DNA of 64,000 nt from Sphingosinicella sp. (GCF_013911755.1 NZ_JACESP010000014.1:33639-97638), one strand, 5' to 3'. Positions 7,975 through 53,880 are shown, counted from the stretch's first letter. Notes: generated from the letters alone by a model not told the origin. Program-made: numbers and translations.

Positions 7975-7978
7975 CGGT

Positions 7979-8539: not shown

Positions 8540-8560
8540 GGGCAGACGTTAGGCTATCGT

Positions 8561-9741: not shown

Positions 9742-9824
9742 CACGGCCGGCAGACGATCGTTCGATGCGCCCGGTTCGGCGGAAGTCGCTGGCGGTGCAT
9801 CCGCGGACCGGTTCTACTGAAACG

Positions 9825-12132: not shown

Positions 12133-12822
12133 ATGAAATTACAAAAAGTAACTAAAAATGCGACGGCCGGTTTACGTTGGTACGACGATGCGTGCGGCGC
12201 TGCACTGGCACTGGAACTGGTGGGAGAGCGCTGGGCGCTGCTCGTGATGCGTGAACTGATGTTCGGTCCACGCCGCTTCGGGCAGATTCGGGCGCATCTG
12301 CCGGGAGTGAGCGCAAATGTTCTGACGCAGCGGCTGGAAGGACTGGAAGCGCACGGCGTGTTGCGGCGAACAACGCTCGCACCACCAGCGTCGGTGCCAG
12401 TCTATGAACTGACGCCGTGGGGTTATGAGGCTGAGCCGATTCTGCAGACGATGGGCCGCTGGGCGGCACGCTCGCCCGCGCACGACCCATCGCTGCCGCT
12501 CTCGCCGGCCTCGACGATGCTTTCACTGCGCACGATGCTCGACATGAAGCGTGCAGCCACGCTCTGCGCGCGAATCGCGTTCCGGTTTCCGGACGATGCG
12601 TTCGTTGCCGACCTGTCGGACGGTGAACTCTCCATCCGACGCGGCGAGACCGCGGACGCCGACGTCACCTTTTCAGGGGGAACGACGGCGCTTGTCCGCG
12701 TCTTCTATGGCAAGCGGCCCATTGCGGAAGAGGAGCTGACGGTTGCGGGCGATCCGGAAATCGCGGGCCGGTTCATCGGTCTCTTCGCGCTGCCGCCCAA
12801 GGTGGAGGGCGATACCCGTTAG
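12133..12822 (+). CDS. HxlR-type winged-helix transcriptional regulator with C-terminal extension
   Basis: HxlR signature CGAALALELVGERWALLVMRELMFGPRRFGQIRAHLPGVSANVLTQRLEGLEAHGVL. Divergent from the GST gene. Confidence 0.85.
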   Translation: MKLQKVTKNATAGLRWYDDACGAALALELVGERWALLVMRELMFGPRRFGQIRAHLPGVSANVLTQRLEGLEAHGVLRRTTLAPPASVPVYELTPWGYEAEPILQTMGRWAARSPAHDPSLPLSPASTMLSLRTMLDMKRAATLCARIAFRFPDDAFVADLSDGELSIRRGETADADVTFSGGTTALVRVFYGKRPIAEEELTVAGDPEIAGRFIGLFALPPKVEGDTR

Positions 12823-42056: not shown

Positions 42057-42082
42057 AAATAAGTGGATGCCCCGCGAGGATT
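42057..42082. repeat. att direct repeat, left copy (AAATAAGTGGATGCCCCGCGAGGATT)
   Basis: Identical to 53800-53825. It duplicates the last 19 nt of tRNA-Gln plus 7 nt downstream. Confidence 0.88.
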
Positions 42083-42088
42083 ATAAGA

Positions 42089-42181
42089 TGCCTTCGCCGA
42101 CATTCGCGGACCTTCACAGAAAGCCTTGAAACTGCGTCGATTATAGCGATATTGTTTCGCCTGCCTTCGCTCACATTCGCG
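42089..42181 (+). repeat. pair of 20-nt direct repeats (candidate integrase arm-type sites)
   Basis: TGCCTTCGCCGACATTCGCG (42089-42108) and TGCCTTCGCTCACATTCGCG (42162-42181) match at 18 of 20 positions. They lie between att and int. Confidence 0.45.
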
Positions 42182-42222
42182 TACTATCGCGCCGAAACGA
42201 GGGAACGGATGGGGGAACGAAG

Positions 42223-43398
42223 ATGCCCAAGCTTACCGTCGTCGGAGTTCGCAACGCCAAGCCGGGCCGCCACGCTGACGGCGGCGGGCTCTACCTGCTT
42301 GTGAAGCCGAGCGGGGCGCGGTCGTGGCTGCTGCGTTATCAGGTCGCGGGGCAGCGGCGGGATATCGGGCTCGGCGCCGTGTCGGACCTCACACTACAGG
42401 AAGCGCGTGAGAAGGCCGCCCAGCTTCGCAAGGTGGCACGCAACGGCGGCGACCCGATCGCCGAGCGGGACCGCGAGCGCCGGCCCGTACCGACGTTCCG
42501 GATTGCCGCCAAGGCGTGCCATGAGGAAATGAAGCGGGGATGGGAGCCGAAGCACGCAGCGTCGTGGCTGTCGTCGCTTGAGGAACACGCCTATTCTGCG
42601 CTCGGCAACACCCGTGTCGATATGATCGAGGCTTCCAACGTCCGCGACGCACTCGCGCCGATCTGGATCGATAAGCCGGTCATGGCGCGCAAAGTCCGTC
42701 AGCGTATCGGGGCGGTGCTGAACTTCGCGAAGTCGAAGGGCTGGCGCGCGAGCGAGGCCCCGACGCGATCGGTAACGGTCGGCCTGTCCCGGCAGCCGAA
42801 GGGCGGCAACTTCGCCGCCATGCCCTACGCAGAGGTTCCCGCGTTCGTGCAGGCCGTGCGGGAGGCGTCTGAGACGGTCGGACGCATGGCGCTATTGTTC
42901 ACGATCCTGACGGCCGCGCGCTCGGGCGAGGTGCGCTCGGCGCGCTGGAGTCATATCGATTTCGAGGCGGCGCTATGGAGGCGTCCGGCGGCGCTGATGA
43001 AGTCCCGCGAGGCGCACGACGTGACACTGAATCCCGCGGCGTTTGCGATCCTTGAGCGCGCCGCGATGCTCCGCACCACGAAGGGCGACGCACTGATCTT
43101 CCCGGGGAAGAGCGGCAAGCCGCTGTCTGATATGACCCTGACCAAGGCGCTGCGGGATGCCGGGCAGACATGCACCGTTCACGGGTTCCGGTCGAGTTTC
43201 CGCGACTGGTGCGCCGAGCAGATGCCCGGCACGCCGGAAGCGGTCGCCGAGGCCGCGCTTGCCCATGTCGTCCCTGATGCCGTCGTGCGGGCCTACAAGC
43301 GGACGAAATTCCTCGATATGCGCCGCGGGCTGCTGAACGCGTGGGGCGCCTTTGTGGACGGGGAGCAGGGTGGGAACGTGGTGGCGATCAGGGCTTAA
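42223..43398 (+). CDS. int: tyrosine-type site-specific integrase (P4-like, DUF4102 N-terminal arm-binding domain)
   Basis: N-terminus GRHADGGGLYLLVKPSGARSWLLRY. Catalytic residues appear in ARSGEVRSARW, HGFRSSFRDW and VVRAYKR. Confidence 0.92.
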   Translation: MPKLTVVGVRNAKPGRHADGGGLYLLVKPSGARSWLLRYQVAGQRRDIGLGAVSDLTLQEAREKAAQLRKVARNGGDPIAERDRERRPVPTFRIAAKACHEEMKRGWEPKHAASWLSSLEEHAYSALGNTRVDMIEASNVRDALAPIWIDKPVMARKVRQRIGAVLNFAKSKGWRASEAPTRSVTVGLSRQPKGGNFAAMPYAEVPAFVQAVREASETVGRMALLFTILTAARSGEVRSARWSHIDFEAALWRRPAALMKSREAHDVTLNPAAFAILERAAMLRTTKGDALIFPGKSGKPLSDMTLTKALRDAGQTCTVHGFRSSFRDWCAEQMPGTPEAVAEAALAHVVPDAVVRAYKRTKFLDMRRGLLNAWGAFVDGEQGGNVVAIRA

Positions 43399-43937
43399 GC
43401 TTTCGCGACGTCCTGCAGCAAGTCCGCCGCCCGGCGAAGCTCGTCGACCACGCTTTTAATGCGTCGAGAGTTCACGCCGCCTGTCCACCGCTGGCGTGCG
43501 ACCTGCGCGGCGGAATAGTCCTCAAGCGCGATGGCGCGCAGGGTTGCAACCAAGCTCCCTACCGCCGTTTCGGCGCGGCGCACGTCGGCTTCGGCGTCGA
43601 GGATCCGAGTGCGCCACCTTTCATAGTCGCCGCCGCCTGAGCGGGGACCGAGGCGCCCGAGGGAATCCACCGTCGCGGAGTATTGCGCGCGGTCCCATCG
43701 ATCACGATACCAGCCGAGCGCTGTAGCCTGGCTGTCGCTGATCGTGCCTGCGCGGGCCATGGTGACGACGTGCGGCACGCGGCGATAGACGCGCTCGCGC
43801 TGCACAGTGCCGTCCTCGACGAGTGCGGCGTCTTCGTATTGAAAGCGTGCGGCCTGCTCTTCCGTCGGCCCGAGCGTTGTGATTTCGATGCGTTCGGGCT
43901 GCCGACGCTGCGCCGGCTTGCGCTTTGGTTTCCCCAT
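43395..43937 (-). CDS. hypothetical island protein (basic N-terminus, possibly DNA-binding)
   Basis: 180 aa from ATG 43937 (MGKPKRKPAQRR). Its stop overlaps the int stop inside the palindrome GCTTAAGC. The longer 295-aa track version is rejected. Confidence 0.55.
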   Translation of the reverse strand: MGKPKRKPAQRRQPERIEITTLGPTEEQAARFQYEDAALVEDGTVQRERVYRRVPHVVTMARAGTISDSQATALGWYRDRWDRAQYSATVDSLGRLGPRSGGGDYERWRTRILDAEADVRRAETAVGSLVATLRAIALEDYSAAQVARQRWTGGVNSRRIKSVVDELRRAADLLQDVAKA

Positions 43938-44263
43938 CCGGTGATTATAGGGCGGGGAGGGCCGCGCCTCAAGAAGTTCGCGCCCGGCGTAAGGAAGCGT
44001 ATTACCGGCAAGCCCGCAATCTCGAAGCTGAGCGTGAAGCGGCGAACGTCCGCCTGCGTGCCGAGCGCCGGGCGGGTGAGTTGTTGAAGGAGTTGGCGCG
44101 GGCTCAAGGTGAGCGCACCGATCTGCGCGATGAAACTTTGTCCGGCGATGCGACAAAGTCCCCATACGCCACCGCCCTCGCAGACACCGGCATGTCCCGC
44201 CAGACGGCGCACCGCTACCAGAGTGAGGATGAGGCCATCGTGGCAGCGTGGTTGGTGGGCTAG
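43925..44263 (+). CDS. hypothetical phage-related protein (RLRAERRAGELL ... ALADTGMSRQTA motif family)
   Basis: The motif pattern recalls a widespread alphaproteobacterial phage/plasmid protein family (from memory). A truncated inverted paralogous copy lies at 53541-53722. The TTG start is uncertain. Confidence 0.45.
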   Translation: MVSPSGDYRAGRAAPQEVRARRKEAYYRQARNLEAEREAANVRLRAERRAGELLKELARAQGERTDLRDETLSGDATKSPYATALADTGMSRQTAHRYQSEDEAIVAAWLVG

Positions 44264-44550
44264 GAAAGCCCACGCAGGTCAACCAGCGCCGAAATGGCGG
44301 CCGAGCCTGCTGCGATGGCAGCGATTACTAGGGCCGCCACACCATAAATGATCTGCCAGACTGTCAGGTCGATACGCTTTCCAACCTGTACGGGCTTCCC
44401 ATCCCAGTAGAGATCGCCGTCATCGCCGACGCCCATCAAGTCCTCTTCGACCGAAACGTGCTTCACGTGCTTGGGCCAATGTGGCGGCGTTTCTCCCCAC
44501 GCTTGGCCTTTTCGAACTGGCTTCCATCCGGGCGGTGGGCCGTCAGTCAC
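44260..44550 (-). CDS. small membrane protein (C-terminal TM helix)
   Basis: 96 aa. GTG start overlaps the upstream RHH gene by 8 nt. TM segment WQIIYGVAALVIAAIAAGSAAISALV. Confidence 0.5.
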   Translation of the reverse strand: MTDGPPPGWKPVRKGQAWGETPPHWPKHVKHVSVEEDLMGVGDDGDLYWDGKPVQVGKRIDLTVWQIIYGVAALVIAAIAAGSAAISALVDLRGLS

Positions 44551-44734
44551 ACCCTAACCCCCGCTCCACCAGCCGCCGAATAGCCTCCGGCCGTGTCGGC
44601 AGGTCCGGCTGCTCGCGGCGCCAGTTGTCGATTGCGTTTAGCGCGGGCCGCTCAAGCCGAACATTGACCGCCTCCGAGTCTACTGGAGGCCGTCCCATTC
44701 TTTTCGACTTATTGGCGCTATTATCTGTTGACAT
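44543..44734 (-). CDS. small ribbon-helix-helix-like regulator
   Basis: 63 aa. KRMGRPPVDSEAVNVRLERPALNAIDNW resembles an RHH/CopG-type N-terminal strand-helix. Divergent from the rightward operon. Confidence 0.6.
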   Translation of the reverse strand: MSTDNSANKSKRMGRPPVDSEAVNVRLERPALNAIDNWRREQPDLPTRPEAIRRLVERGLGCD

Positions 44735-44823
44735 GGTAGTTTTATAGCGTCATAAAGAGCGGGCGGCAAGAGAGATTAGCCCCTCCCGAGCCGCCCTAAC
44801 ACAACGATCGACTGGAGACCGTT

Positions 44824-44961
44824 ATGCTTACCATAGCCCTACACCCCGACGCCGCCGAAATCGAGCGCCAGTATCAGGAACAGGCCCGCCAGCTCGCGGC
44901 GTGGCGCGACAGTGAAATTGAGCGCGTCGTGCGTCGCGTCATGCGGGAGGCGAGCAAGTGA
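44824..44961 (+). CDS. unannotated 45-aa ORF (MLTIALHPDAAEIERQYQEQARQLAAWRDSEIERVVRRVMREASK)
   Basis: GGAGA lies 5 nt upstream of ATG 44824. Its TGA overlaps GTG 44958 of the next gene (GTGA). It is below the ORF-track cutoff. Confidence 0.4.
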   Translation: MLTIALHPDAAEIERQYQEQARQLAAWRDSEIERVVRRVMREASK

Positions 44962-45512
44962 GCCCCGCGATACACACGCCCGCAACGCTTATCGACGCAT
45001 ACGAGGCTGGACGGATGACGCGGCCCGAGTTGCTCGACCATCTGCTCGAGTGGCGGAAGGCGGTGCCTGCGAAGGCCGACAACAAGCAGGCGCTGCTTAC
45101 CCTGTGCGATGCCCACGACGACATTGGCGTTGTGAACGACCTCGCGACCGCAATCGAGATGATGGCGATGGACATCAGCGGCAATCAGCGGGACGCCTTT
45201 ATTCGTGTGGCTCAGGCGATCAAGTCCAACGCAGCGCAGGTGGGGAACCGCATCCACCTTGTCACGGATGAAATGAGGGAGACGGCGGAGAAGTCCACAA
45301 CGCCGATGAGCCCCGACGAAGACACGGTGGCCAGCCTTGCCCATGTCGGCGCCATGCTGATGAGCATCGGGTATGCGCTGGAAGCCGCCGAGGCGCTTTT
45401 CCACAATACCAATCGCGAAGACTTCGACAGGGGCGCGGGAACGCTCGCCTGCGCGATTGCGATGGCAAAACGCGCAGAGAAATTCGCAAATGGGGAGACG
45501 GTCGATGCGTGA
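44958..45512 (+). CDS. hypothetical island protein (acidic, helical)
   Basis: 184 aa. Coupled to the 45-aa ORF and overlaps the next ORF by 8 nt. No recognisable domain. Confidence 0.55.
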   Translation: MSPAIHTPATLIDAYEAGRMTRPELLDHLLEWRKAVPAKADNKQALLTLCDAHDDIGVVNDLATAIEMMAMDISGNQRDAFIRVAQAIKSNAAQVGNRIHLVTDEMRETAEKSTTPMSPDEDTVASLAHVGAMLMSIGYALEAAEALFHNTNREDFDRGAGTLACAIAMAKRAEKFANGETVDA

Positions 45513-45747
45513 AGCTGATCTGAAAAAGGCCATGCAGGGCTTCCGGATGGCCGACGTCACCCCTTTCGGCCACTTCGGCACGCCGGATTTCACGGCGGAA
45601 ACGATGGAGGGCGCGCGCAGTCTCGTGGCGGCGGTAAGCGATGCCATCGAGGCTGGGATTGCCGAGCAGCCGCTGCGTGCCGCGCTTTCTGGCATTGAGA
45701 TGCTGATCGCGCTCGGATCGCTGTCGGACAGTTGCCGGGACACCTGA
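45505..45747 (+). CDS. hypothetical island protein
   Basis: 80 aa from ATG 45505. It is the last gene before the terminator at 45775-45806. Confidence 0.45.
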   Translation: MREADLKKAMQGFRMADVTPFGHFGTPDFTAETMEGARSLVAAVSDAIEAGIAEQPLRAALSGIEMLIALGSLSDSCRDT

Positions 45748-45774
45748 TGCCGCCCGCGCGGTTTGGGCTATACT

Positions 45775-45806
45775 GCGCCGCTCCCGCGTGGGGCGGCGCT
45801 GCTTTT
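45775..45806 (+). terminator. intrinsic terminator after the three-gene operon
   Basis: Stem GCGCCGC/GCGGCGC, 11-nt loop, then TGCTTTT. Confidence 0.55.
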
Positions 45807-45823
45807 GGGACGGAGCATAACCA

Positions 45824-46561
45824 GTGAAGTTGACGAAGCGACCTGTCGTGCGTTGCACGAGCCCGACGGATTACGACGCATACATGCCAGGATTTCGGGC
45901 TCAGGCGTTAGTGGTTCAGGCGCTAAACGTTGAGCCCTCCGAGGCTGCGCGCCTGTTGATGGCCGAGGCTGAAAGCGGCAGGCTGCCCGCGCGCTGCCAC
46001 CGTCGGGCCGATGAGTTCACTTCAACTTCTCGGTCACCGACCATCCGCGTAAAATTGCTTCGCCCGCGTCATGAGCAATGCCCGGCTGTCGTGCATCCGG
46101 AAGATTGGGCCGCTATCCGCCATCTTATCGTCGAGCTGGAGGAGGAAATTGCAGCTGACGGGGAAGACGCCTGCACGCCGTCCGTCCTTCGCCTTGTTAC
46201 ACTTTGCGACTTTGAGCGCTGGAGCTTCCGTTTTCGGAGTCGCGATGCTCTCGGAAACTCGCAATTTACAACGCTGGAGGATGTCGACTTTAGGCGCGCC
46301 GAGGTTACAGCCCTCTGTGCGCCGCAAAAGGACGGAGCGAGGCGCGGGCGGCCCACGCGATATGATTGGCCAGCGTTTTTCAACGAGGCGACGCGACTAC
46401 TGAAAGAGCGCGGCGGTCTGAATGAGACGTGGATAAAGGCGGATTTAGAGCGCGACATGGAGTTCTGGTGCGAGACAACTTGGCATCGTACACCAAGTGC
46501 AAACTCTATTGCGAACCATGTTCGCAAGGCATTGATAACGTTTGATAATACAGACCAATAA
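45824..46561 (+). CDS. hypothetical island cargo protein
   Basis: 245 aa. GTG start 8 nt after GGAG. The 3' half is visibly AT-richer. No recognisable domain. Confidence 0.55.
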   Translation: MKLTKRPVVRCTSPTDYDAYMPGFRAQALVVQALNVEPSEAARLLMAEAESGRLPARCHRRADEFTSTSRSPTIRVKLLRPRHEQCPAVVHPEDWAAIRHLIVELEEEIAADGEDACTPSVLRLVTLCDFERWSFRFRSRDALGNSQFTTLEDVDFRRAEVTALCAPQKDGARRGRPTRYDWPAFFNEATRLLKERGGLNETWIKADLERDMEFWCETTWHRTPSANSIANHVRKALITFDNTDQ

Positions 46562-46669
46562 ATAATTATTGGCCTGATATTATCCAGATCGTTCGGATGA
46601 GCGGCATTTTTCGCTGAATATTCCACACAGCCGCCGGGCATTTCCCGGCTGTTGTGGAGGAAACCAGCA

Positions 46670-46840
46670 ATGTCTGATCGCATCGCGTACAGCGTGAAAG
46701 AGGTCGAACAGCGTTTCGGCCTTGGCACGACGACCGTCTACAAACTCATCAAGGAAGGCCGGCTTGAAACGTTCCGTGTGGGGCGTCGGCGGCTGATCAC
46801 TGCACAGTCTGCGCACAACCTTGTCACCGAGGCCGCCTGA
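46670..46840 (+). CDS. AlpA/Xis-type helix-turn-helix protein (excisionase or regulator)
   Basis: YSVKEVEQRFGLGTTTVYKLIKEGRLETFRVGRRRLI is a typical AlpA/MerR-like excisionase HTH. GGAGG lies 9 nt upstream of ATG 46670. Confidence 0.7.
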   Translation: MSDRIAYSVKEVEQRFGLGTTTVYKLIKEGRLETFRVGRRRLITAQSAHNLVTEAA

Positions 46841-47166
46841 TGCGCGCTGCGGAAGGGACGGGCCCGCCCGACAAACGAAAACGGCCGCCGGGACGTGGCG
46901 ACCGCTTCCTAGAGATTTCGAAAACCAATGGTCCAAAAATCATAGCACCGAACGCAGCGAATGCCAAGGGTTTGAGCATTCGAATCAACGAGATTTCGGA
47001 CGGATTTGAAGTGGCGCTGCATGGTGCCGCAATCGGTCGCGTCTGCCGGATTGCCAGCTATCCCACGCGCCGCGAGGCCGTCGACAGGGCGGTCCTCGAA
47101 GAGCGTGAACGTGGCGTGCCGCTGATCGTCGAGAGCGCCGTAACGTCGACGTCGGGGAGGGCATAG
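46840..47166 (+). CDS. hypothetical island protein
   Basis: 108 aa. Its ATG overlaps the alpA-like stop (TGATG). No recognisable domain. Confidence 0.4.
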   Translation: MRAAEGTGPPDKRKRPPGRGDRFLEISKTNGPKIIAPNAANAKGLSIRINEISDGFEVALHGAAIGRVCRIASYPTRREAVDRAVLEERERGVPLIVESAVTSTSGRA

Positions 47167-47282
47167 GCAGTGGCTATGCAATCTCTCTCCACGAAACCCC
47201 ACACCTCTCTCTTCGTGCCGCCATCCATGCCCGCAGAGGTGTTGCGGCGCATGGCCGCGGTCTGGACAGTCGGGAGGCACGC

Positions 47283-48230
47283 ATGACGCTTCCGCCTCTC
47301 GATACTGCCGAACTTATCGCTGCGACCCCGGAAGTCGCGCGCTTCCTGCTCGGCGAGCCGAACCCGAAGGCAAGTCGCGCGGGCGAAATGCGCTATGGTA
47401 CGCATGGCAGCCTGTCGGTCGATTTGAACAAGGCGACCTTTCGTTATCACGAAACCGGCGAGGGCGGGGGGCTCCTCGACCTGATTGCTCGCGAGCGGCG
47501 CTGCACGCGTGGCGATGCGGTCAACTGGCTTCGCGAAATGGGCTTCGTGTCATCGGCTGATGGTGCTCCAGCCTCGCGCCGACAGACGGCAACTCCAGCC
47601 AGGTCGGCCAATTGGCCTACCTCGCGCCCCGACGATGCCGACCGCACCCGCCGTGCGCTGGCGCTCTGGAATGAGGCTGTAAGCGCCGAGGCGACGATCG
47701 CCGAGCGATATCTCGCCAGCCGCGGCGTGGCACTGCCTGCCGAGCCGTCGCGCGTCGTCCGCTACATGGCCGCGTGTCCGTTCGGCAACGGTCAACGGCT
47801 TCCCTGCATGGTGGCGCTGATGCGCGATCCATTGACCGGCGAGCCTGTGGGGATTCATCGCACCGCGCTCACGCCCGAAGCCCGCAAGATCGATCGCAAG
47901 ATGCTGGGCCGAGCCGGCGCAATCATGCTCAGCCGCTCCGATGACGTGACCCACGGGCTCGGCATCGCCGAGGGCATCGAGACGGCGCTGTCGGTGCTCG
48001 CCGCAGGTTGGGCGCCTGTGTGGGCGATCGGTTCGGCGGGCGGCATTGCCAGCTTTCCGGTGCTTCCCGGAATCGAGGCGCTGACCGTTTTCGCCGACGC
48101 CGACGAGCCGGGCCAGAATGCCGCTCGCGCCATCGCCGAGCGATACGCCGACGCGGGACGCGAGGCTTTCATTCAGACCCCGCCCGAGGGTGATTTCAAC
48201 GACCGCCTGCAGGGGTCTATGTATGCGTAA
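47283..48230 (+). CDS. toprim-domain primase-like protein
   Basis: Toprim acidic motifs GLGIAEGIETALS and VFADADEPGQNAA. N-terminal P4-alpha-like region. Confidence 0.8.
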   Translation: MTLPPLDTAELIAATPEVARFLLGEPNPKASRAGEMRYGTHGSLSVDLNKATFRYHETGEGGGLLDLIARERRCTRGDAVNWLREMGFVSSADGAPASRRQTATPARSANWPTSRPDDADRTRRALALWNEAVSAEATIAERYLASRGVALPAEPSRVVRYMAACPFGNGQRLPCMVALMRDPLTGEPVGIHRTALTPEARKIDRKMLGRAGAIMLSRSDDVTHGLGIAEGIETALSVLAAGWAPVWAIGSAGGIASFPVLPGIEALTVFADADEPGQNAARAIAERYADAGREAFIQTPPEGDFNDRLQGSMYA

Positions 48231-49350
48231 TGGGGCAGCAGCGGGCGTTCTGGGCGCCAAGGTCGAGCGCTTTCCGCCGCGGGGTGGCGACGCACCTGTC
48301 ATGCCGAGCGATGGCGCCCGCATCATCTCGGCGGCCGACCTCGACGAATTCGACTTCCCTGAGATCAAGTTCATCGTGCATGGCCTGATCGTCGAGGGTC
48401 TGACCATCCTCGCTGGCAAGCCGAAGTTCGGTAAGTCGTTCCTCGTGCTCCAGCTCCTCATAGGCGTTGCCAGCGGCACCCTTGCGCTCAACGATCTGGA
48501 GTGTGACGCCGGGGACGTGCTTTACGTCGCGGGTGAGGACAACGAACGCCGTTTGCAGCGTCGTTTGCGGCAGATCCTTGGGCGTGGCCCCAAACCGAAG
48601 CGCCTGCATCTCACGACATCCTGGCCGAAGATCGGAGACGGCTGCATCGAGGCGCTGGAACGCTGGCTGGACGACCATCCCGACGCCCGAATGATTGTTC
48701 TCGACACGTGGAGCGTCATCAAGCCGCGCAGCAATGGCCAGAGGGGCGTGTACGATGAGGATGCGGACGGCGTGCGCCCGCTCCAGCGGCTTGCCAGTGA
48801 ACGGGGCGTGGCGGTCATCCTCGTGCACCACACGCGCAAGGCTGAAGCCGACGACGTGTTTGATACCGTAAGCGGCTCGCTGGGCCTCACGGGCGTTGCC
48901 GATACCATCCTGATCGCTGGCCGCTCCGATGACCGCTGCCTTCTGTCGGGCAAGGGCCGCGACATCGAGGAATTCGAGAAGGTCATCAAGCGCGATCCGC
49001 ACATGGGGACGTGGACCATTCTCGGCGACTCCGCGACCGTTCCAGACACTCCCGAGCAGCAGGCCGTCGTGCATGTTCTTGCGAAAGCGGGGACGCCGAT
49101 GACGGCAACCCAGATCGGCGAGGTGCTGAAAAAGGACCGTACCGCCGTCCAGCACATGCTCCGCCGCCTGCGGCTGCATGGCAAAGTCGAATACCACGGG
49201 AGGTCCGGCTACTCCGTTCCCCTATTCACTAACGTCACTAACGTCACTCAACCCCCCGCCCATAGTGAACATAGTGACGATAGTGATGGGGGTACATACG
49301 CGCGCGAGATGAGCGAGCCTTCCTTCCCAGATGAGGAGGACTCCGAATGA
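48223..49350 (+). CDS. RepA/DnaB-like AAA ATPase (AAA_25-type replicative helicase)
   Basis: Walker A GKPKFGKS, Walker B MIVLDTW and ILVHHTRK. Its ATG overlaps the primase end by 8 nt. Confidence 0.8.
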   Translation: MRNGAAAGVLGAKVERFPPRGGDAPVMPSDGARIISAADLDEFDFPEIKFIVHGLIVEGLTILAGKPKFGKSFLVLQLLIGVASGTLALNDLECDAGDVLYVAGEDNERRLQRRLRQILGRGPKPKRLHLTTSWPKIGDGCIEALERWLDDHPDARMIVLDTWSVIKPRSNGQRGVYDEDADGVRPLQRLASERGVAVILVHHTRKAEADDVFDTVSGSLGLTGVADTILIAGRSDDRCLLSGKGRDIEEFEKVIKRDPHMGTWTILGDSATVPDTPEQQAVVHVLAKAGTPMTATQIGEVLKKDRTAVQHMLRRLRLHGKVEYHGRSGYSVPLFTNVTNVTQPPAHSEHSDDSDGGTYAREMSEPSFPDEEDSE

Positions 49351-49553
49351 ACGTGCCCACCCTTGAGCAACTCACCCGCCAGAATGAGCAACTTCTCCGC
49401 GACATCGCCCGGCAGTTCGTCGTCGGCACCGGCGGCAATCGCGCCGAGGCGCTGCGTATGGTCGAGGTGATCCGTCAACACATCTGGAGCGGGCAACTCT
49501 GCACGAATCCGCTCTGTGGCGATCGGGGCTGCACAGGCTGCCTCGCCTACTGA
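49347..49553 (+). CDS. small Cys4 protein (possible zinc-ribbon regulator)
   Basis: 68 aa with an ATGA overlap with the helicase gene. C-terminal CTNPLCGDRGCTGC (C-x4-C-x4-C-x2-C). Confidence 0.5.
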   Translation: MNVPTLEQLTRQNEQLLRDIARQFVVGTGGNRAEALRMVEVIRQHIWSGQLCTNPLCGDRGCTGCLAY

Positions 49554-49600
49554 GATTCCCCCGAAAACTGAGAAGTGAACCCGAAGAAAAGGAATGAAAA

Positions 49601-49885
49601 ATGGCAGTTAACATGACCCAAAAGTCGACCGGAAAGACCGCAAGCGTCCACCCCGATGAAGTCGCAAACTACGCGGACGGAGGATGGCGGGTGGAAGGTG
49701 AGACCGTGAGCCTCGACGATGCCACGACCGGCCAGCTCGTCGACGAGTTGCAGCACCGTCTCGCTGTTGAGGCTGAAACCGACTCCACGGGAATTCCCGT
49801 AGAGGCTGAAACCGGCTTTCGCGGCCCACGCACGGCGATCCCGCTGGGCGTAAAGCACCTTCTCGGGCTCGGGCACACGATCTGA
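49601..49885 (+). CDS. hypothetical island protein
   Basis: 94 aa. AAGGAA precedes ATG 49601. No recognisable domain. Confidence 0.45.
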   Translation: MAVNMTQKSTGKTASVHPDEVANYADGGWRVEGETVSLDDATTGQLVDELQHRLAVEAETDSTGIPVEAETGFRGPRTAIPLGVKHLLGLGHTI

Positions 49886-49968
49886 CGAAAACTTTACAGA
49901 ACTTGACATTTTGGAGCGCGGGGCTGGCGATGATGTTGCAGCCCCGCGTTCGAAGCGGAGGACGAAAA

Positions 49969-50604
49969 ATGAATATCTATGACACGATGCGCGCGCGCAT
50001 AAATCCCGGCTGGGACAAGTTCACGCGTCTTTCCACCTCAGCGAAAATCGCGATCAACGTCGCCGAGACCGTTACGGCGACCGCCACGGAAATCGCGAAA
50101 GACGAGAAACTCACCCCCGTCGGTCGCACCGATGCCGTGCGGAAAGCTGCCAAGGAGGCGGCCGCCCGGCTCCGCGACGCCGAGGCCCGCGCCGCTGCCG
50201 AGCTTGTGGACCTTCGCGCCGATCATGCGAAGCTCACCCAAATGCCCGCAGACAAGGCGGACCTCGCCCGCGCCGTTCTACGCGCGGAAATCCGCCAGTG
50301 GCTTCGCGCCATGCCTGCCGGCGAGCGTATCGTAACGTTGACGGGGGAGGATGCAGATCCTGCCATCCTCGATGCTGCGCTGTCCGGGCCCCCGGCGCTC
50401 GCTGGCCTCACGCCCGAAACCGTCGACACGGTGCGTGCGCGGTACATCGAACTCGTTCACCCGGGCGAGGCTGGCAATCTGTCCGGCGGCCTTGAGGCAT
50501 CGGAGTTCGCCGCGTCGGCCATCGCCATCGCCAAGGCAGACCTGCAGCGCGCGGTTGCCTTCGAGCGGCCGGACGAGTTCGCCCGCTGGTACGAGGCGGC
50601 GTAA
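49969..50604 (+). CDS. hypothetical island protein
   Basis: 211 aa from ATG 49969, preceded by GGAGGA. The upstream part of the track ORF runs through a 10-bp hairpin (49917-49948). Confidence 0.55.
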   Translation: MNIYDTMRARINPGWDKFTRLSTSAKIAINVAETVTATATEIAKDEKLTPVGRTDAVRKAAKEAAARLRDAEARAAAELVDLRADHAKLTQMPADKADLARAVLRAEIRQWLRAMPAGERIVTLTGEDADPAILDAALSGPPALAGLTPETVDTVRARYIELVHPGEAGNLSGGLEASEFAASAIAIAKADLQRAVAFERPDEFARWYEAA

Positions 50605-50798
50605 TGGGCCAACGGCTGACGCAGGGACGGCTCAAATGGCGCCGGGGCGGTCGTTCCGTCTCGGCGCCTACACGCCTGTGAGCCGTGGTTATAATCCTGA
50701 GCAAGCAGCCATAATTTCTAGCCATCGCATTGCTTTTGCGATAGAATGCAACCGCGCAATGGACGGGTTCCCCCGAATATTCCCTCAGTCCACCGTGC

Positions 50799-50822
50799 AA
50801 TTAGGCGTTTTGCCTAATTTTT
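50799..50822 (+). terminator. terminator-like hairpin / operator upstream of the tape-measure gene
   Basis: AATTAGGC-GTTTT-GCCTAATT followed by TTT. A third TTAGGC copy lies at 50821-50826, 13 nt before ATG 50839. Confidence 0.4.
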
Positions 50823-50838
50823 AGGCAGGGAAACCCGC

Positions 50839-53541
50839 ATGTCTGATACGGTTCGCACCATCCGCATTGTTGTCGACAGCCGCCCCGCCGAGGAAGGGGC
50901 AGGTAGGGCCAGGCGCGCCTTGGGCGGACTTGGCACCGAAGCTGCCCGCGCCGACCGCACAATGAAAATGCTCGGATCCGGTCTGAACGGCACCGGCGCG
51001 ATGATGAAGGAAGCCGAGCGGAGCACTCGCCAACTTGAGCAGGCGACGCTGGAATTGTCGCGGGCTCAGATGACGGCCACGCGCTCAGCAGGCTCCATGC
51101 GCGCTGCGTCGATGAACCTTGGCTACCAGATCAGCGACGTGACACAGCAGATCGCGCTTGGCACCAATCCCCTGATCATCTTTGCGCAGCAGGGCGGGCA
51201 GACCGCTGCAGCACTTGCGGGCATGGGTGGCCGTATCGGTGCCGTTGCAAGTGCGCTGTCAGGCCCATGGGGCGCCGCTGTGATGGGCGCTGTAATGATC
51301 GCGGGCACGCTGGCCACAAAGCTTTGGGATAACGCCGAGGCAGCGGACGAAGCCGCCGAGAAGACCGGTAAGCTCACGGGCGCCGAGAAGCTGCTGAAGG
51401 AACTGCGCGGCGAATCGATCCTTACCGCCCGCGAGATGGCCAAGCAGACGTACAATCTGGCGCTCCAGAAGCGACAGGAGGCGGTCGACACGCTCGCGGC
51501 AGCGCAGGCGCACCTCGAATACGCAAAGGCGTTCCATGAGGCCCAGAAGGTGCGCGCCTCTGGTCCGGGGCAGGGCAATGAGCTGGCTGCGCTGGGCTTG
51601 GGCCGAACGGTGGCGGGCATCGAGAAGGCGGAAAAACGTGTCGCCGAGATGCGGAAAGGTCTGTTTGACGCCAGCTCGGACGTCGACAAGGCGTTCGGAA
51701 AGGTATCGTCCAGCGGATTGGAGCTTGAGGACGTGCTGGGCGGGGTCAACCGCAACTTCCGGGAAACGAAGGATGCCAGCGACACTGCGACGACGGCGCT
51801 GCGCGAACAGCAAAAGGCAATGGACGCCTTGGTCGGGGCCGCGCAGCGTGCCAGCAACGCCATGGCTGATTTTGGCATTGCAGACGCCGCAGCGATGGCC
51901 AAAGCCCGCGAGGACGCGTACGCCAAGCGGTACGGCATTGAGGGCGGGATTTACGGCAAAGGGCTAGGCGCAATCCTCAACGAATCGAGGCGCCCCATGG
52001 GTGAAGCCGGCGACGAAATCGGCAAGAGGGCAGGCCGCGCGTTCCGTGACGAAGGGTTGCTCGCGGCCGAAGCGATAGGTCAGATCATCGGCGGCAAGGC
52101 CGGTAGGGCGATCCAGAATGTGGTGGGCATCCTTGAGGGTGCGAAGTCCGGCGACTTCACGGCCATGAACAGCCCGCTCGGCGCGCTGGCAACGCTGGCG
52201 AGCAGCAAGAGCGGTCCCGGTCGCCAGTTCCTCGACGACGCGGACAAGTTCGCCAAGCCGATCACCAAAAAGCTCGACAAGATATTTGGTGGCATGGAGG
52301 GCGACGGCACCTTCACGAAGGCGCTTGGCGGCGCGATCAAAGGTGGGGCGATCGGTGAGGCCACGTCCGGCGTGATGAAAGCGCTGGGCATCAAGACGAG
52401 CAAGACCGGGGCACAGATCGGCGGCGCGATCGGTGGCGCGACCGGTATTCCCGGTATGGATATCGCCGGTTCGATCGTTGGCGGCGTCATTGGCGGGATG
52501 CTGAAAAAGACGAAATGGGGTGCGGCCGACATTACGAGCGTCGACGAGTTCGGGATGCGCGGCAACAGCGGTAAGGCGAAGGACGCGGCGAGCGCTGCAG
52601 CCACGTCGTTCCAGGGCGGGCTGCAGTCGATCGCTGACGCGCTCGGTGCTGACCTCGGCAGCTTCGGCGTTACCCTCGGGCAGCGTCACGGTGACTGGCG
52701 CGTCAATACGAACGCGGGCGGATCGCTCAAGAAAAAGAAGGGCGCCGTCGAGTTCGACGACGATGCCGAGGGCGCGATCAAGTACGCCATTCGTGATGCG
52801 ATCCGCGATGGCGCCTTGCTAGGCATCTCTGAGTTTTCGCAGCGCGTACTTCGCGGCAACATGGACCTCGACAAGGCCCTCGACATTGCCGCGAAGTACG
52901 AAACCCTGCTGGAAGCGCTTGCAGCGAGCGACAATCCGATCAGGGCCGCGGCGGAATCCTTCGCGAAAGACTTCACCATGCTCGCGAACGAAATGAAAAA
53001 GGCCGGCGCGACGGCGGCCGAGCTTGCGAATATCGAAACATACTATGCGAAGGAACGCGAGAAGGCGCTGACGGCGGTCCTGCAGCCGCTCAAGGACTAT
53101 CAGAAGTCGCTCTCTGGCGAGGGCTCCGGAGTTACCGCACTCAACCGCTTCAACACGTCGAAGCTGGAGTATGAGCAGGCCAAGGCGGGATTCGCCGCCG
53201 GGACGGTCGATCAGGGCGCCTTCACGGCCGCAGGGCAGGAACTGTTCGCGCTTGCTCGCGACGTGTTCGGGACCGCCACAGGTGAGTTTCAGTCGATCAG
53301 GCAGCAGCTTTTGGCCGACACAGCCGGGGCGCTGGAGACGGCCGCCGCTGCATTCAATGGCGGGGCGCCTGAACGCCTGCTTGCCGCGCAGGAAGCGCAG
53401 AACACGATTACCGCGCAGCAGTATCAGCAGCAGGTCATCGGGAATCAGTATCTCGCCTACTTGCCCCAGATCGCGCAGGCGCTGGCATCTGGCGGCACCA
53501 TCTCGGGGCGGTACGTGAACGGGGTTTGGAAGGCGGCGTAG
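50839..53541 (+). CDS. phage tail tape-measure protein (lambda gpH-type N-terminus)
   Basis: 900 aa. NLGYQISDVTQQIALGTNPLIIFAQQGGQTAAALAG, long coiled-coil regions and a Gly-rich hydrophobic core GAIGGATGIPGMDIAGSIVGGVIGGML. Confidence 0.85.
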   Translation: MSDTVRTIRIVVDSRPAEEGAGRARRALGGLGTEAARADRTMKMLGSGLNGTGAMMKEAERSTRQLEQATLELSRAQMTATRSAGSMRAASMNLGYQISDVTQQIALGTNPLIIFAQQGGQTAAALAGMGGRIGAVASALSGPWGAAVMGAVMIAGTLATKLWDNAEAADEAAEKTGKLTGAEKLLKELRGESILTAREMAKQTYNLALQKRQEAVDTLAAAQAHLEYAKAFHEAQKVRASGPGQGNELAALGLGRTVAGIEKAEKRVAEMRKGLFDASSDVDKAFGKVSSSGLELEDVLGGVNRNFRETKDASDTATTALREQQKAMDALVGAAQRASNAMADFGIADAAAMAKAREDAYAKRYGIEGGIYGKGLGAILNESRRPMGEAGDEIGKRAGRAFRDEGLLAAEAIGQIIGGKAGRAIQNVVGILEGAKSGDFTAMNSPLGALATLASSKSGPGRQFLDDADKFAKPITKKLDKIFGGMEGDGTFTKALGGAIKGGAIGEATSGVMKALGIKTSKTGAQIGGAIGGATGIPGMDIAGSIVGGVIGGMLKKTKWGAADITSVDEFGMRGNSGKAKDAASAAATSFQGGLQSIADALGADLGSFGVTLGQRHGDWRVNTNAGGSLKKKKGAVEFDDDAEGAIKYAIRDAIRDGALLGISEFSQRVLRGNMDLDKALDIAAKYETLLEALAASDNPIRAAAESFAKDFTMLANEMKKAGATAAELANIETYYAKEREKALTAVLQPLKDYQKSLSGEGSGVTALNRFNTSKLEYEQAKAGFAAGTVDQGAFTAAGQELFALARDVFGTATGEFQSIRQQLLADTAGALETAAAAFNGGAPERLLAAQEAQNTITAQQYQQQVIGNQYLAYLPQIAQALASGGTISGRYVNGVWKAA

Positions 53542-53722
53542 CGCCGTCTGGCGGGACATGCCGGTGTCTGCGAGGGCGGCGGCGTATGGAGATGGGGTTG
53601 TCGCATCGTTGGACAACCCCAACTGCCTCTCTCGTGCCGCCTTCCCGGTCTCGGCAAGATCAGCCCGCGCCAACTCCTTCAGCAATTCCCCGGCGCGCCG
53701 CTCCGCACGAAGACGGACGTTC
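53541..53722 (-). pseudogene. truncated inverted copy of the 43925-44263 gene
   Basis: Encodes NVRLRAERRAGELLKELARA...PYAAALADTGMSRQTA. It shares a 39-nt and a 20-nt identical run with 44044-44210. Both gene ends are missing, and the homology stops at the tape-measure stop codon. Confidence 0.6.
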
Positions 53723-53799
53723 AAAACACTTGAGGGAGCAAACGTGGGAACGATCCCACTATATCCCGATATTTCCCTGAAAATCCCGCAACTTAGCGA

Positions 53800-53825
53800 A
53801 AATAAGTGGATGCCCCGCGAGGATT
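53800..53825. repeat. att direct repeat, right copy
   Basis: Identical to 42057-42082. It overlaps the 3' end of tRNA-Gln (53807-53825). Confidence 0.88.
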
Positions 53826-53880
53826 CGAACCTCGATTGACGGAGTCAGAGTCCGTAGTCTTACCATTAGACGACAGGGCA
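53807..53880 (-). tRNA. tRNA-Gln (CTG)
   Basis: Reverse complement folds as acceptor UGCCCUG/CGGGGCA (U1-A72), anticodon loop CUCUGAC, T arm CGAGG-UUCGAAU-CCUCG, with encoded CCA. Confidence 0.9.

Follow-up and report, generated by a model that had tools for sequence, protein, structure and literature searches.

The element described here is, with moderate confidence, an integrative, self-replicating, phage-satellite-like island of Sphingosinicella sp., belonging to a modular island family of the Sphingomonadaceae. We infer its satellite behaviour from its gene content and from its relatives, and the family most likely parasitises long-tailed phages; the one virion gene in the island is that of the tail tape measure protein (TMP). 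The window, i.e., the whole stretch of DNA that was analysed, comprises 64,000 nucleotides, and all positions are counted from its first letter.

Integration Site and Gene Content

The features of the island, with strand, are as follows:

42057-42082, no strand: attL, left copy of the 26-bp direct repeat (part of the tRNA-Gln 3′ end, with 7 nt more)
42223-43398, +: P4-type tyrosine integrase, 391 aa (Arm-DNA-bind_3, Phage_int_M, Phage_integrase; phrog_1)
43395-43937, –: orf2, 180 aa, convergent with the integrase gene (98% identical in L004, dN/dS 0.018)
43925-44263, +: orf3, 112 aa, left arm of an inverted duplication (44044-44215); weak phrog_33995 match
44260-44550, –: orf4, 96 aa, hydrophobic C-terminus, window-specific
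44543-44734, –: putative RHH-like repressor of 63 aa, the leftward half of the divergent switch (phrog_4738)
44824-44961, +: conserved ORF of 45 aa with which the rightward operon begins (homologues in L004, L002, L052)
44958-45512, +: orf6, 184 aa (N-terminal 109 aa 89% identical to L004)
45505-45747, +: orf7, 80 aa (86% identical in L004)
45824-46561, +: orf8, 245 aa, cargo gene specific to the window copy, with low local G+C (54-55%)
46652-46840, +: excisionase/AlpA-like HTH_17 protein (PF12728, E 5e-9; TIGR01764; phrog_66)
46840-47166, +: orf10, 108 aa (55% identical in L002)
47283-48230, +: DUF7146 + Toprim_3 primase, 315 aa (PF23639, E 1e-19; PF13362, E 4e-17)
48223-49350, +: AAA_25 (RepA/DnaB-like) ATPase, 375 aa, winged-helix-like C-terminal region (PF13481, E 2e-30; helicase/primase PHROGs)
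49347-49553, +: 68-aa protein, four cysteines in the C-terminal part, conserved in the island family (homologues in L002, L004, L005, L048, L052)
49601-49885, +: orf14, 94 aa, conserved in the island family (69-84% identical in L004, L005, L048)
49969-50604, +: orf15, 211 aa, all-helical, conserved in the island family (homologues upstream of the TMP module)
50607-50672, +: deletion scar in which a remnant of a DUF5681 gene (its first ~60 nt) runs into the end of a 55-aa gene (alignment to L004)
50675-50836, +: conserved non-coding leader/promoter region, ~160 nt, upstream of the TMP gene, GGTTATAAT, with the palindrome TGCCTAATTTTTAGGCA adjoining the RBS
50839-53541, +: TMP, 900 aa, last island gene (PF06791 TMP_2 in the N-terminal part; four TMP PHROGs)
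53536-53722, –: right arm of the inverted duplication, a truncated orf3-like fragment (repeat alignment)
53800-53825, no strand: attR, right copy of the 26-bp direct repeat, which overlaps the 3′ end of the tRNA
53807-53880, –: intact tRNA-Gln(CTG), the integration target (ARAGORN; Rfam RF00005, 61.3 bits)

The direct repeat AAATAAGTGGATGCCCCGCGAGGATT is perfect and occurs in exactly two copies in the window, 0 matches being expected in shuffled sequences even with up to 3 mismatches, and its right copy consists of 19 nt of the tRNA 3′ end and 7 nt downstream. The original prediction had taken this repeat and its overlap with tRNA-Gln(CTG) as the footprint of an insertion, and repeat counts, shuffles, ARAGORN and Rfam all bear it out. 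The island spanned by the repeats measures 11,769 bp (about 11.7 kb), with a G+C content of 63.4% against 65-66% in the flanks, and the ends of the related island L002 likewise bear a repeat of this kind, of 24 bp. At the level of sequence, these features identify the tRNA-Gln 3′ end as the point of entry, the P4-type tyrosine integrase as the enzyme of insertion and the 11.7-kb segment as a real mobile island.

At the left end, the integrase is 97% identical to that of L004 and 90% to that of L002 (dN/dS 0.06-0.09), and the neighbouring orf2 has no match in Pfam, PHROG, PADLOC or NCBIfam. Two features overlooked in the original prediction are the conserved 45-aa ORF and an inverted duplication of ~180 nt, whose arms, 44044-44215 and 53536-53722, are 85-93% identical. 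The orf3 in its left arm, absent from the corresponding position of L004, is probably a gene fragment; L004 has two orf3-like fragments, inverted, after its TMP stop codon, and such inverted fragments resemble debris. Likewise, the segment 43975-44570, which includes orf4 (no family match in Pfam, PHROG or PADLOC), has no counterpart at that position in L004. The 63-aa putative repressor matches phrog_4738 “transcriptional repressor” only weakly (E 1e-5), and is 93% identical in L004 and 55% identical to a gene of the IMG/VR prophage contig L018. It faces the rightward operon that opens with the 45-aa ORF, of which the homologues in L004, L002 and L052 are 58-91% identical with 25 invariant positions. 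Further along, orf6 has no family match, a strong terminator-like hairpin (45775-45799; 10-bp stem, 9 GC pairs, T-run; terminator scan) lies 3′ of orf7, and orf8 has neither a counterpart in L004, L002 and L052 nor a match in Pfam, PHROG, PADLOC and NCBIfam.

The HTH_17, Toprim primase and AAA_25 genes then follow in this order. The HTH gene likely starts at 46670, and its product matches HTH_17 and the TIGR01764 excisionase family (35.9 bits, cut-off 28.8) rather than Phage_AlpA. The primase matches the phrog_510 DNA primase (E 1e-34) and is 100% identical over 270 aa in L044, and the ATPase is 95% identical in L004 (dN/dS 0.044); gene calls in L047 place the starts of the AAA_25 gene (48223) and orf15 (49969) later than the longest ORFs. 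The replicase thus consists of separate Toprim_3 and AAA_25 proteins, unlike the P4 alpha primase-helicase. These assignments show an island predicted to carry its own primase and AAA_25 replicase, an excisionase-type HTH protein and a divergent regulatory switch.

Searches of the island ORFs against Pfam, PHROG and NCBIfam models gave no terminase, portal, capsid, tail tube, lysis, relaxase or T4SS gene, PADLOC gave no match, no tail assembly chaperone (TAC) or hub was matched in the window island, and no helper phage was found within the window. The gene calls of the original prediction were therefore essentially right, the integrase, HTH, primase, AAA_25 and TMP domains being reproduced by Pfam, PHROG and NCBIfam, and so was its statement that terminase, portal, capsid, lysis and conjugation genes are absent.

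The Tape Measure Protein and Its Phage Relatives

The last gene of the island encodes a genuine, full-length TMP and is the sole virion gene of the island. Its product is 61% identical over the C-terminal 506 aa, and 63% over the first 56 aa, to P0007, the TMP of siphophage contigs L049/L050, and its middle is divergent, while the TMP of the L004 island is 55% identical to P0007 over its full length. The related phage TMPs P0005, P0007 and P0008 sit in complete tail modules, with terminator, Phage_tube_2, YdaY chaperone, TMP, distal tail genes and lysozyme. Furthermore, a 210-nt tract of the window (52604-52814) has 95% nucleotide identity to the TMP gene of phage L053, in surroundings of 65-75%, and comparison with L005 gives a dN/dS of 0.07 at dS 0.34. 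By these data the island TMP gene shares ancestry with the TMP genes of one defined siphophage group and has recombined with them, the tail-module siphophages being the presumed helper type. In the phage loci compared, no DNA is common to the island outside the TMP gene; the complete siphophage contigs compared have no clear match to any other island gene, and a 94-109-aa gene of theirs has short, weak N-terminal similarity to orf14. An IMG/VR search with the TMP as query did not find the island family. A contig that looks like a capsid-forming counterpart, L001, carries MuF, TerL, portal, major capsid, a Neck1-like connector and a TMP 66% identical to that of the window, without tube or chaperone.

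The island might instead be a mobilisable or replicative element unrelated to phage particles, spreading by conjugation, vesicles or GTA with the TMP gene as passenger DNA, a reading that we consider very improbable. A module of DUF5681, chaperone-like and TMP genes does lie beside a Mob_Pre relaxase on L007, a scaffold of 8.7 kb, and the primase domains match the TraI C-terminal sequence, weakly and partially (54 bits against a cut-off of 930). However, no relaxase, oriT-type or T4SS/T4CP gene, as expected of an ICE or IME, was found in the window island, and the fixed terminal place of the TMP gene, its strong purifying selection and its exchange with phage TMP genes are unexpected for a passenger.

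Small Genes, Lost Cassette and Leader Upstream of the TMP Gene

Between the replicase and the TMP gene lie small genes conserved in the family. The 68-aa cysteine protein is found at the same position, with 41-43% identity, in L002, L004, L005 and L048, and with 42% in L052. The homologues of orf15 in the same five islands are 28-91% identical (dN/dS 0.12-0.18), and its AF2 model (pLDDT 71) gave no significant fold match.

In most relatives a three-gene cassette (DUF5681, 87 aa and 55 aa) precedes the TMP gene, and the sublineage of the window is without it: window 47623-50665 aligns with L004 4743-7747 and window 50673-50940 with L004 8543-8809, leaving the scar between them, and junction alignments place the same deletion in L048. 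The cassette possibly represents a small-terminase-like packaging specificity gene with two small partners; DUF5681 stands where TerS would lie in a single contig, L060, it gave no TerS-like fold match, and the 87-aa and 55-aa genes have no family match. Since the window copy is without the cassette, it may rely more on a helper or transmit less. The near-identical relative L044 is without a different block, and the two losses may be a sign of continuing decay and not of modularity.

The leader has a mean identity of 79% over 7 islands and contains a predicted promoter-like site at 50719-50747. By nhmmer it was found in 8 island sequences (7 independent, L047 being a duplicate of the window) and in no phage locus compared.

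Related Islands and Selection

Seven further islands, mutually diverged, have the same layout, with integrase, switch, HTH_17, replicase, small genes and, at the end in every case, the TMP gene, and are without head, tube or lysis genes. L002 occupies the same tRNA-Gln in a related host, with flanking genes 88-94% identical, an integrase 90% identical and cargo only 28-55% identical; L004, L005, L044 and L048 share the layout as well. L052 differs in its integrase (56% identical), in its site and in having a Prim-Pol replicase, and its right-hand module is 86-99% identical to those of L004 and L005. Modules are thus shuffled between islands, which appear from these comparisons to form a recurring, modular and previously undescribed family in the Sphingomonadaceae. 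The comparison at the tRNA-Gln locus and among relatives suggested in the original prediction therefore gave a positive answer, the integrase/HTH_17/replicase module recurring without those virion genes.

The main ORFs are intact and, with dN/dS from 0.02 to 0.18, the island genes are under purifying selection. The original prediction had named a decayed prophage as the alternative. Such an element would derive from a siphophage that lost its head, tube and lysis genes by deletion, and would survive as an inert remnant of integrase, early genes and TMP. The phage origin of the TMP gene, the deletion scar of the window with the different deletion in L044, and the truncated duplicated fragments near the island ends all fit such a remnant. 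A collinear deletion derivative with decaying ORFs is nevertheless not what is observed: in the complete siphophage contigs compared the TMP alone clearly matches (plus the short, weak orf14 similarity), and the same virion genes are missing from all seven diverged islands, despite their other integrases, replicases and sites. Moreover, the deletion junction is common to the diverged L048, so the cassette-less form has persisted. Because the ORFs are intact, dN/dS is low and modules are shuffled, the remnant is disfavoured and, in our judgement, decidedly unlikely.

A Candidate Mechanism

Under the satellite reading, siphophage infection or induction would lead to excision and replication of the island, and its TMP would be expressed under a separate control region, conserved upstream of the gene. 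The first 56 aa and the last ~500 aa of the island TMP are phage-like, and these parts would be expected to engage the tail-tip initiator and become capped. The island TMP would replace that of the helper in tails built of helper tube, tip and chaperone proteins. The outcome would be chimeric, probably shorter tails and island DNA in helper capsids, possibly at a cost to the helper.

The same TMP could serve an anti-phage defence island, as a dominant-negative or decoy protein poisoning siphophage tail assembly, with the island spreading rarely or otherwise. That the first 56 aa and the C-terminal half have stayed phage-like around a divergent middle, that the gene has its own conserved control region and that no packaging gene is recognised in the window copy all agree with this, and satellite-borne defences targeting tails are documented, such as Rta in PLE11 (PMC12987554) and the Tai systems (PMC11364771). 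On the other hand, a static defence gene has no need of a full excision and replication module under purifying selection, PADLOC finds nothing in the island, and the only tested precedent puts a satellite TMP into satellite virions (PMC12987554); we consider a defence island unlikely. Defence is compatible with the satellite reading and not exclusive of it.

Returning to the satellite reading, we propose tentatively that these islands represent an unrecognised family of minimal Sphingomonadaceae satellites, whose single virion gene is a TMP continually recombining with that of the helper and expressed from a dedicated conserved control region. This TMP would both gain the island entry to tails made by the helper and serve as a weapon against it. 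If so, the PLE “chimeric tail” strategy would also hold for temperate siphophages and for Alphaproteobacteria of soil and freshwater and, since the DUF5681 cassette is gone from sublineages such as that of the window, the TMP may be the one hijacking function that cannot be dispensed with.

Comparison With Known Satellites

The original prediction read the island as a PICI-like or P4-like satellite. The likeness holds in that an integrase/HTH_17/replicase module recurs without virion head genes, but membership of either group was rejected. With the P4-like elements the island shares an arm-binding P4-type integrase (Arm-DNA-bind_3, Phage_int_M and Phage_integrase) at a tRNA gene, here tRNA-Gln, an AlpA-like gene and a Toprim-type primase; unlike them, it has no sid, psu, delta or epsilon homologue by PHROG or Pfam, no P4 alpha-type fused primase-helicase (D5_N/DUF5906) and no identified cos site. 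With the PICIs of Gram-negative bacteria (EcCICFT073) and of the SaPI type it shares a size of 10-15 kb, flanking att repeats at a defined locus, a terminal integrase gene and a cargo gene of accessory type. The PICI order of divergent regulatory pair, alpA and primase/replicase is resembled less clearly: the genes stand in that order, with a repressor-like match that is weak (E 1e-5) and an HTH protein of the HTH_17/TIGR01764 type rather than Phage_AlpA. The island differs from PICIs in the lack of recognised packaging or capsid-size genes (no terS, rpp/ppi or cpm match in Pfam, PHROG or NCBIfam in the window island, and no cos match), and in carrying a virion structural gene, the 900-aa TMP, which classical PICIs lack.

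The novelty claimed for a sphingomonad satellite family was weaker than stated, satellites in Alphaproteobacteria (PMC9618062) and TMP-encoding satellites (PMC12987554; PMC12822802) having already been reported. The former, the VEIMEs (virion-encapsidated integrative mobile elements), occur integrated in marine bacteria, Alphaproteobacteria among them, and are small tyrosine-integrase islands with replication genes considered to be phage satellites (PMC9618062); they are defined there by physical presence in virions, whereas the island is known here from genes alone, and tail or TMP genes are not found reported as a VEIME feature in the available part of the source. Among the latter, putative tmp genes are present in PLE-like elements and some cf-PICIs (Extended Data Fig. 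10b, PMC12987554), and the EPIP satellites of Mycolicibacterium encode a TMP (PMC12822802). The island shares this gene with cf-PICIs and EPIPs but carries no gene for a capsid, portal, terminase or connector; EPIPs integrate by means of serine integrases and possess TerS, scaffold and capsid-related genes (PMC12822802).

The closest parallel in strategy is offered by the Vibrio PLE satellites, which encode their own TMP, TAC and hub, that TMP entering shorter chimeric tails (Nature 2026, PMC12987554); the own-TMP strategy has been experimentally shown only in these cholera-phage satellites, in 2025-2026 (PMC12987554). The two are alike in being integrated islands of ~12-18 kb that replicate with a module of their own, are without most virion genes and encode a TMP related to that of the (presumed) helper. 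Their genes have no sequence homology, however, and a PLE recombinase contrasts with a P4-type tyrosine integrase at a tRNA, a lytic myophage helper with a presumed temperate-type siphophage of Alphaproteobacteria, and the PLE TAC and hub with none recognised in the island. The PLE TMP is shown in satellite virions, whereas that of the island is known here as a gene; it is, in turn, far closer to its phage counterparts, with 55-61% identity and the tract of 95% nucleotide identity, than the PLE TMP is to that of ICP1, at 20%.

Integration Site and Gene Content of the Island

Two exact copies of the 26-bp direct repeat AAATAAGTGGATGCCCCGCGAGGATT are present in the window, one at 42057-42082 and one at 53800-53825; a third is not found there at up to three mismatches, nor any in 100 shuffles. 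ARAGORN and Rfam agree on a tRNA-Gln(CTG) gene, intact and encoded by the minus strand (53807-53880), so that the right repeat covers the final 19 nt of this tRNA and the 7 nt that follow, the footprint expected for site-specific insertion at a tRNA 3' end. The repeat pair flanking an island at tRNA-Gln, first noticed by eye, is thus confirmed by exact repeat search and by both tRNA tools. The island bounded by the repeats measures 11,769 bp, with a G+C content of 63.4% (65-66% in the flanks) and a trough of 54-55% at 46.0-47.0 kb. The genes around it are ordinary chromosomal ones, with a transglutaminase-like gene to its left and Ppx/GppA and FtsJ to its right; Rfam finds nothing in the island apart from the tRNA. 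By exact sequence match, the window comes from a metagenome-assembled genome of a Sphingosinicella sp. Integration at tRNA-Gln is the work of a P4-type integrase, encoded together with an autonomous replication module. Family searches of the island ORFs were made with Pfam, PHROGs and NCBIfam, and PADLOC was used for defence models.

Features of the window island
42223-43398: P4-type integrase, Arm-DNA-bind_3 + Phage_int_M + Phage_integrase (Pfam, PHROGs, NCBIfam)
44543-44734, minus strand: 63-aa protein, weak match to a phage repressor family
44824-44961: 45-aa ORF, first gene of the rightward operon, conserved in relatives; an addition to the first map
45775-45799: strong terminator-like hairpin
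45824-46561: orf8, 245 aa, window-specific, in the lowest-GC part of the island (54-55%)
46652-46840: HTH_17 excisionase-family protein, TIGR01764 above its cut-off
47283-48230: DUF7146 + Toprim_3 primase
48223-49350: AAA_25 ATPase
50839-53541, plus strand: 900-aa protein, N-terminal third matching TMP_2 and four tape-measure PHROGs

The three family collections reproduce the integrase, HTH, primase, AAA ATPase and tape measure calls of the original prediction, and NCBI names the 900-aa ORF 'phage tail length tape measure family protein' (hereafter TMP, tape measure protein). The absence of terminase, portal, capsid, lysis and conjugation genes is equally upheld: the candidate island ORFs give no family match to terminase, portal, capsid, tail tube, chaperone, lysis, relaxase or T4SS. 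Neither the TMP nor orf3 has a match in the plasmid collection. A non-phage mobilisable island carrying its TMP as a passenger is, in our view, highly improbable. The orf15 product is modeled by AF2 as a generic helical bundle without a match.

Orf8 is located between the strong terminator and promoter-like sites upstream of the HTH_17 gene. It matches no family or defence model and looks like an accessory (moron-type) cargo gene. The repressor-like gene, with part of the region upstream of it, has a counterpart in an IMG/VR prophage contig (window 44714-44826, L018 7833-7943) at 55% amino-acid and 75% nucleotide identity, which hints at a relationship between the island switch and a prophage immunity region.

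An inverted duplication of ~180 nt, at 44044-44215 (+) and 53536-53722 (-), has arms that are 85-93% identical and correspond to truncated copies of a small orf3-like gene (weak phrog_33995 match; peptide ...RAERRAGELLKELAR...DTGMSRQTAHRYQ). The first copy is situated between orf2 and orf4, the second immediately behind the TMP stop codon; in the related island L004, two inverted copies, 11827-11988 (+) and 12146-12346 (-), both follow the TMP gene. These copies may be debris of another element, a recombination substrate or part of attP. An inversion of the 9.3 kb between them was considered and rejected, because the genes between the repressor-like gene and the TMP gene, both included, are arranged and oriented as in L004.

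A Modular Island Family Under Purifying Selection

Relatives were traced through homologues of the 900-aa protein and the contigs encoding them, giving seven islands besides that of the window, reported as independent. In L002, from a JGI metagenome, the TMP is 51% identical to the window's and the island is bounded by direct repeats, 24 bp long, that derive from the 3' end of the same tRNA-Gln; the neighbouring Ppx, FtsJ and a third gene are 88-94% identical to those of the window, and the integrase is 90% identical, whereas the cargo reaches only 28-55% and the replicase is an AAA_25 protein without the Toprim primase. L004 ends within the equivalent tRNA and is much closer (integrase 97%, orf2 98%, AAA_25 95%, orf15 91% identical), and L047, from another assembly, is 99.9% identical to the window. 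L005, L044 and L048 are partial islands. L052 is a complete one; its integrase reaches just 56% identity, it has no tRNA-Gln core, and its replicase combines Prim-Pol with AAA_25. The module at its right end (a 68-aa Cys protein, proteins of 60 and 225 aa, DUF5681, 87 aa, 55 aa and TMP) nevertheless matches that of L005 at 90-99% identity, and the TMPs of L052 and L004 are 98% identical. Integrase, replicase and TMP modules have been reassorted, and the island recurs as a modular family. A common order is shared by the seven islands, three of them partial, and the window: integrase, switch, HTH_17, replicase, small conserved genes and TMP last. As to whether the integrase-HTH-primase/helicase module recurs without virion genes, it does so in all seven apart from the TMP gene that ends each of them, and none contains head, tube or lysis genes.

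Selection was estimated as Nei-Gojobori dN/dS, which is 0.07 for the TMP compared with that of L005 (dS 0.34), 0.06-0.09 for the integrase, 0.018 for orf2, 0.044 for the AAA_25 gene and 0.12-0.18 for orf15. Every gene compared is under purifying selection, a pattern unlike that left by a decaying prophage remnant, and this weighs against regarding the island as an inert piece of a former prophage, an explanation that we judge quite unlikely.

The search of genome contigs with the TMP alignment relied on peptide patterns too common in high-GC DNA and, among the matches listed, gave only a weak one in Novosphingobium (L006); in metagenome contigs, a degenerate pattern for the invariant YxKxLSGEGSGVTA motif retrieved nothing but a fragment of 2.5 kb and the phage contig already known. 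In IMG/VR, the TMP alignment matched 34 loci at 29-42% identity, mostly siphophage or prophage contigs of ~40 kb, and none of them carries island genes, so no particle-derived copy of the island family is present among them. In the phage collection the window TMP gives weak N-terminal matches only, to two Erythrobacter siphophages. Two ARAGORN calls of 'tRNA-Cys(aca)', at 4932-5030 in L048 and 10905-11003 in L052, are almost certainly false positives, being 99 nt long and inside the coding sequence of a TMP_3-type tape measure.

Cassette Loss and the DUF5681 Protein

Between orf15 and the TMP gene, L004 and L005 have 795 bp that are missing from the window, with the genes for DUF5681, an 87-aa and a 55-aa protein; what is left of the DUF5681 gene, ~60 nt, is fused at about 50665-50673 with the end of the gene for the 55-aa protein. 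The junction is identical in L048, where orf15 is only 81% identical and the TMP N-terminus is of the other type, and since so diverged an island shares it, the cassette-less form is evidently a persisting sublineage or recombining allele and not a private lesion, as far as the alignments tell. L044 (primase 100%, AAA_25 99.5% identical to the window) keeps the cassette, and what it lacks is the Cys protein with orf14 and orf15. Loss of either block is evidently possible, and may reflect modularity or erosion.

DUF5681 proteins are very common (1958 homologues), yet a close homologue is found in only one of 50,697 phage genome records. The AF2 model (pLDDT 74) is helical with a basic disordered N-terminus and has no significant fold match in PDB or BFVD. 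The sole positional hint of a function is an 11.7 kb contig, L060 (IMGVR_UViG_3300009685_000007), also encoding a D5_N/DUF5906 primase-helicase, in which the DUF5681 gene stands immediately before, and overlaps, the gene for a Terminase_6N large terminase (7944-9955). That DUF5681 is a small terminase is a lead only; in the cassette-bearing relatives the protein is a candidate for choosing island DNA for packaging, whereas the window copy has no candidate for this role.

In Sphingomonas, DUF5681 is also found in other islands with a P4-type integrase, a primase and a DUF3987 helicase. These (L042, on the Sphingomonas sp. SORGH_AS_0879 chromosome, and L043) represent a second island type of ~13.5 kb, in the order P4-type integrase, HTH_17, DnaG-Zn/DUF7146/Toprim primase, DUF3987 helicase, DUF5681, several genes of no assigned function, M15 peptidase and a 1018-1045-aa protein. 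The L043 integrase is 61% identical to the window's, HTH_17 is called in L043 only, and L042 has an IS insertion. A further DUF5681 gene lies on a plasmid-like 'Bacteriophage sp.' scaffold from a human faecal sample (L007, MT836812.1; 8,660 bp, 61% G+C), together with GTA-gp10/TAC_11-like and Neck1-like genes, an 825-aa TMP_2 protein and a Mob_Pre relaxase, that is, a tape-measure module on a mobilisable-plasmid backbone.

The Tape Measure Gene and Its Link to Siphophages

Three related TMPs, P0005, P0007 and P0008, of 1065-1100 aa, belong to canonical siphophage tail modules (contigs L003, L049/L050 and L053/L054). A tail terminator comes first in these, then the major tail protein (Phage_tube_2), a YdaY-type chaperone, the TMP and distal tail genes; where the contig is long enough, in L003 and L049, an endolysin or lysozyme gene is next. 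The TMP of the L004 island aligns with P0007 over its full length at 55% identity. The window TMP aligns with P0007 at its two ends, at 63% identity over the N-terminal 56 residues and at 61% over the last 506, while residues 57-394 are different and of the TMP_2 type common to L001 (66% identity overall). Both N-terminal types are present within islands and outside them: TMP_3 in complete siphophage tail modules, TMP_2 in L001 and in ~40 kb IMG/VR prophage contigs (30-42%). L001, a 15.1 kb contig (Logan ERR6015539), encodes HTH_17, HTH_36, MuF, TerL, portal, major capsid, a Neck1-like connector and TMP; in the part read, from 2.3 kb to the TMP gene, the latter directly follows the connector with no tube or chaperone gene between, and this element may be a capsid-forming counterpart or satellite relative.

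A sliding codon-alignment comparison revealed that window positions 52604-52814 have 95% nucleotide identity (97% in the core) to the TMP gene of phage contig L053, within surroundings that are 65-75% identical. Since synonymous positions of the tract are conserved too, it is best read as a recent recombination between the island and phage genes. Outside the TMP gene, the islands and the phage loci compared share no DNA, including any cos or pac candidate. Judged on sequence, the window TMP gene is lone, intact and selected, homologous to genes of a defined siphophage group and apparently recombining with them.

The ~160 non-coding nt upstream of the TMP start (50675-50836) are conserved in seven islands with 79% mean identity, extending to L002 despite its TMP being only 51% identical. 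A GGTTATAAT box lies in this leader, as does the perfect palindrome TGCCTAATTTTTAGGCA, which directly adjoins the ribosome-binding site; the leader's profile matches all island sequences (n = 8) and none of the phage loci compared. Such conservation suggests that expression of the TMP gene follows a separate cue, which we infer to be a helper late function; the leader may act as a helper-responsive promoter/operator or as a 5'UTR element.

A Possible Satellite Mechanism and Comparison With Known Systems

The satellite-like character of the original prediction is supported by comparative evidence, short of demonstration, and the satellite mechanism appears to us modestly probable. In layout, the island does work like a satellite. 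As such it would depend on siphophages of the L049/L053 type. The 64-kb window itself contains no helper-type phage. Derepression would lead to excision by the integrase and the HTH_17 excisionase-like protein, and to replication by the primase and the AAA_25 ATPase. The island TMP would then take the place of the helper's in tails otherwise made of helper proteins, its conserved N-terminal 56 residues and C-terminal half contacting the tail initiator and terminator, and island DNA would exit in helper capsids. With about 0.15 nm of tail per TMP residue, as is usual for TMP rulers, an island TMP of 900 aa against 1083-1100 aa in the helper would make such tails roughly 25-30 nm shorter. A tail-poisoning defence island, partly compatible with the satellite mechanism, is an unlikely explanation; the ten ORFs of no assigned function match no PADLOC defence model.

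Membership in the PICI or P4 types, whose hallmark had been recognized in the gene order, is not supported: unlike PICIs, the island has no packaging or capsid-size genes and has a structural gene, and unlike P4-like elements it is without sid, psu, delta and epsilon. Until 2025, satellites were believed to take helper tails wholesale. Work on PLE, the Vibrio cholerae satellite of phage ICP1, has revealed that a satellite is able to swap the core protein of the tail: PLE encodes its own TMP, tail assembly chaperone and hub, and its virions contain the PLE TMP and not that of ICP1, with tails ~10 nm shorter (PMC12987554). If this were true of the sphingomonad islands, tail-core substitution would be convergent and widespread and no Vibrio curiosity, and they would offer a minimal setting for it, with a single structural gene, exchangeable modules for integrase and replicase, and recombination with the helper gene that can be seen in the sequence, in which selective TMP incorporation, the tuning of tail length and genome delivery, and satellite-helper co-evolution could be tested. 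In that case, tRNA islands with a lone tape-measure gene, now annotated as prophage debris, would become candidate satellites, and DUF5681 a candidate marker gene for sphingomonad primase/helicase islands.

As to novelty, the literature gave us no account of satellites in sphingomonads. Satellites integrated in other Alphaproteobacteria (VEIMEs) have been reported (PMC9618062). PLE is the closest functional precedent, the role of the sphingomonad islands being deduced from their genes. Putative tmp genes have also been noted in PLE-like elements and some cf-PICIs (PMC12987554), and TMP genes are carried by Mycolicibacterium satellites, in a December 2025 preprint that states TMPs to be otherwise unknown in satellites (PMC12822802). 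TMP-encoding phage satellites are therefore an already known kind, and the sphingomonad islands would be a variant of them, which shares no sequence with any of these elements and differs in its P4-type integrase, in having the TMP as the only recognised virion gene and in its Sphingomonadaceae hosts.
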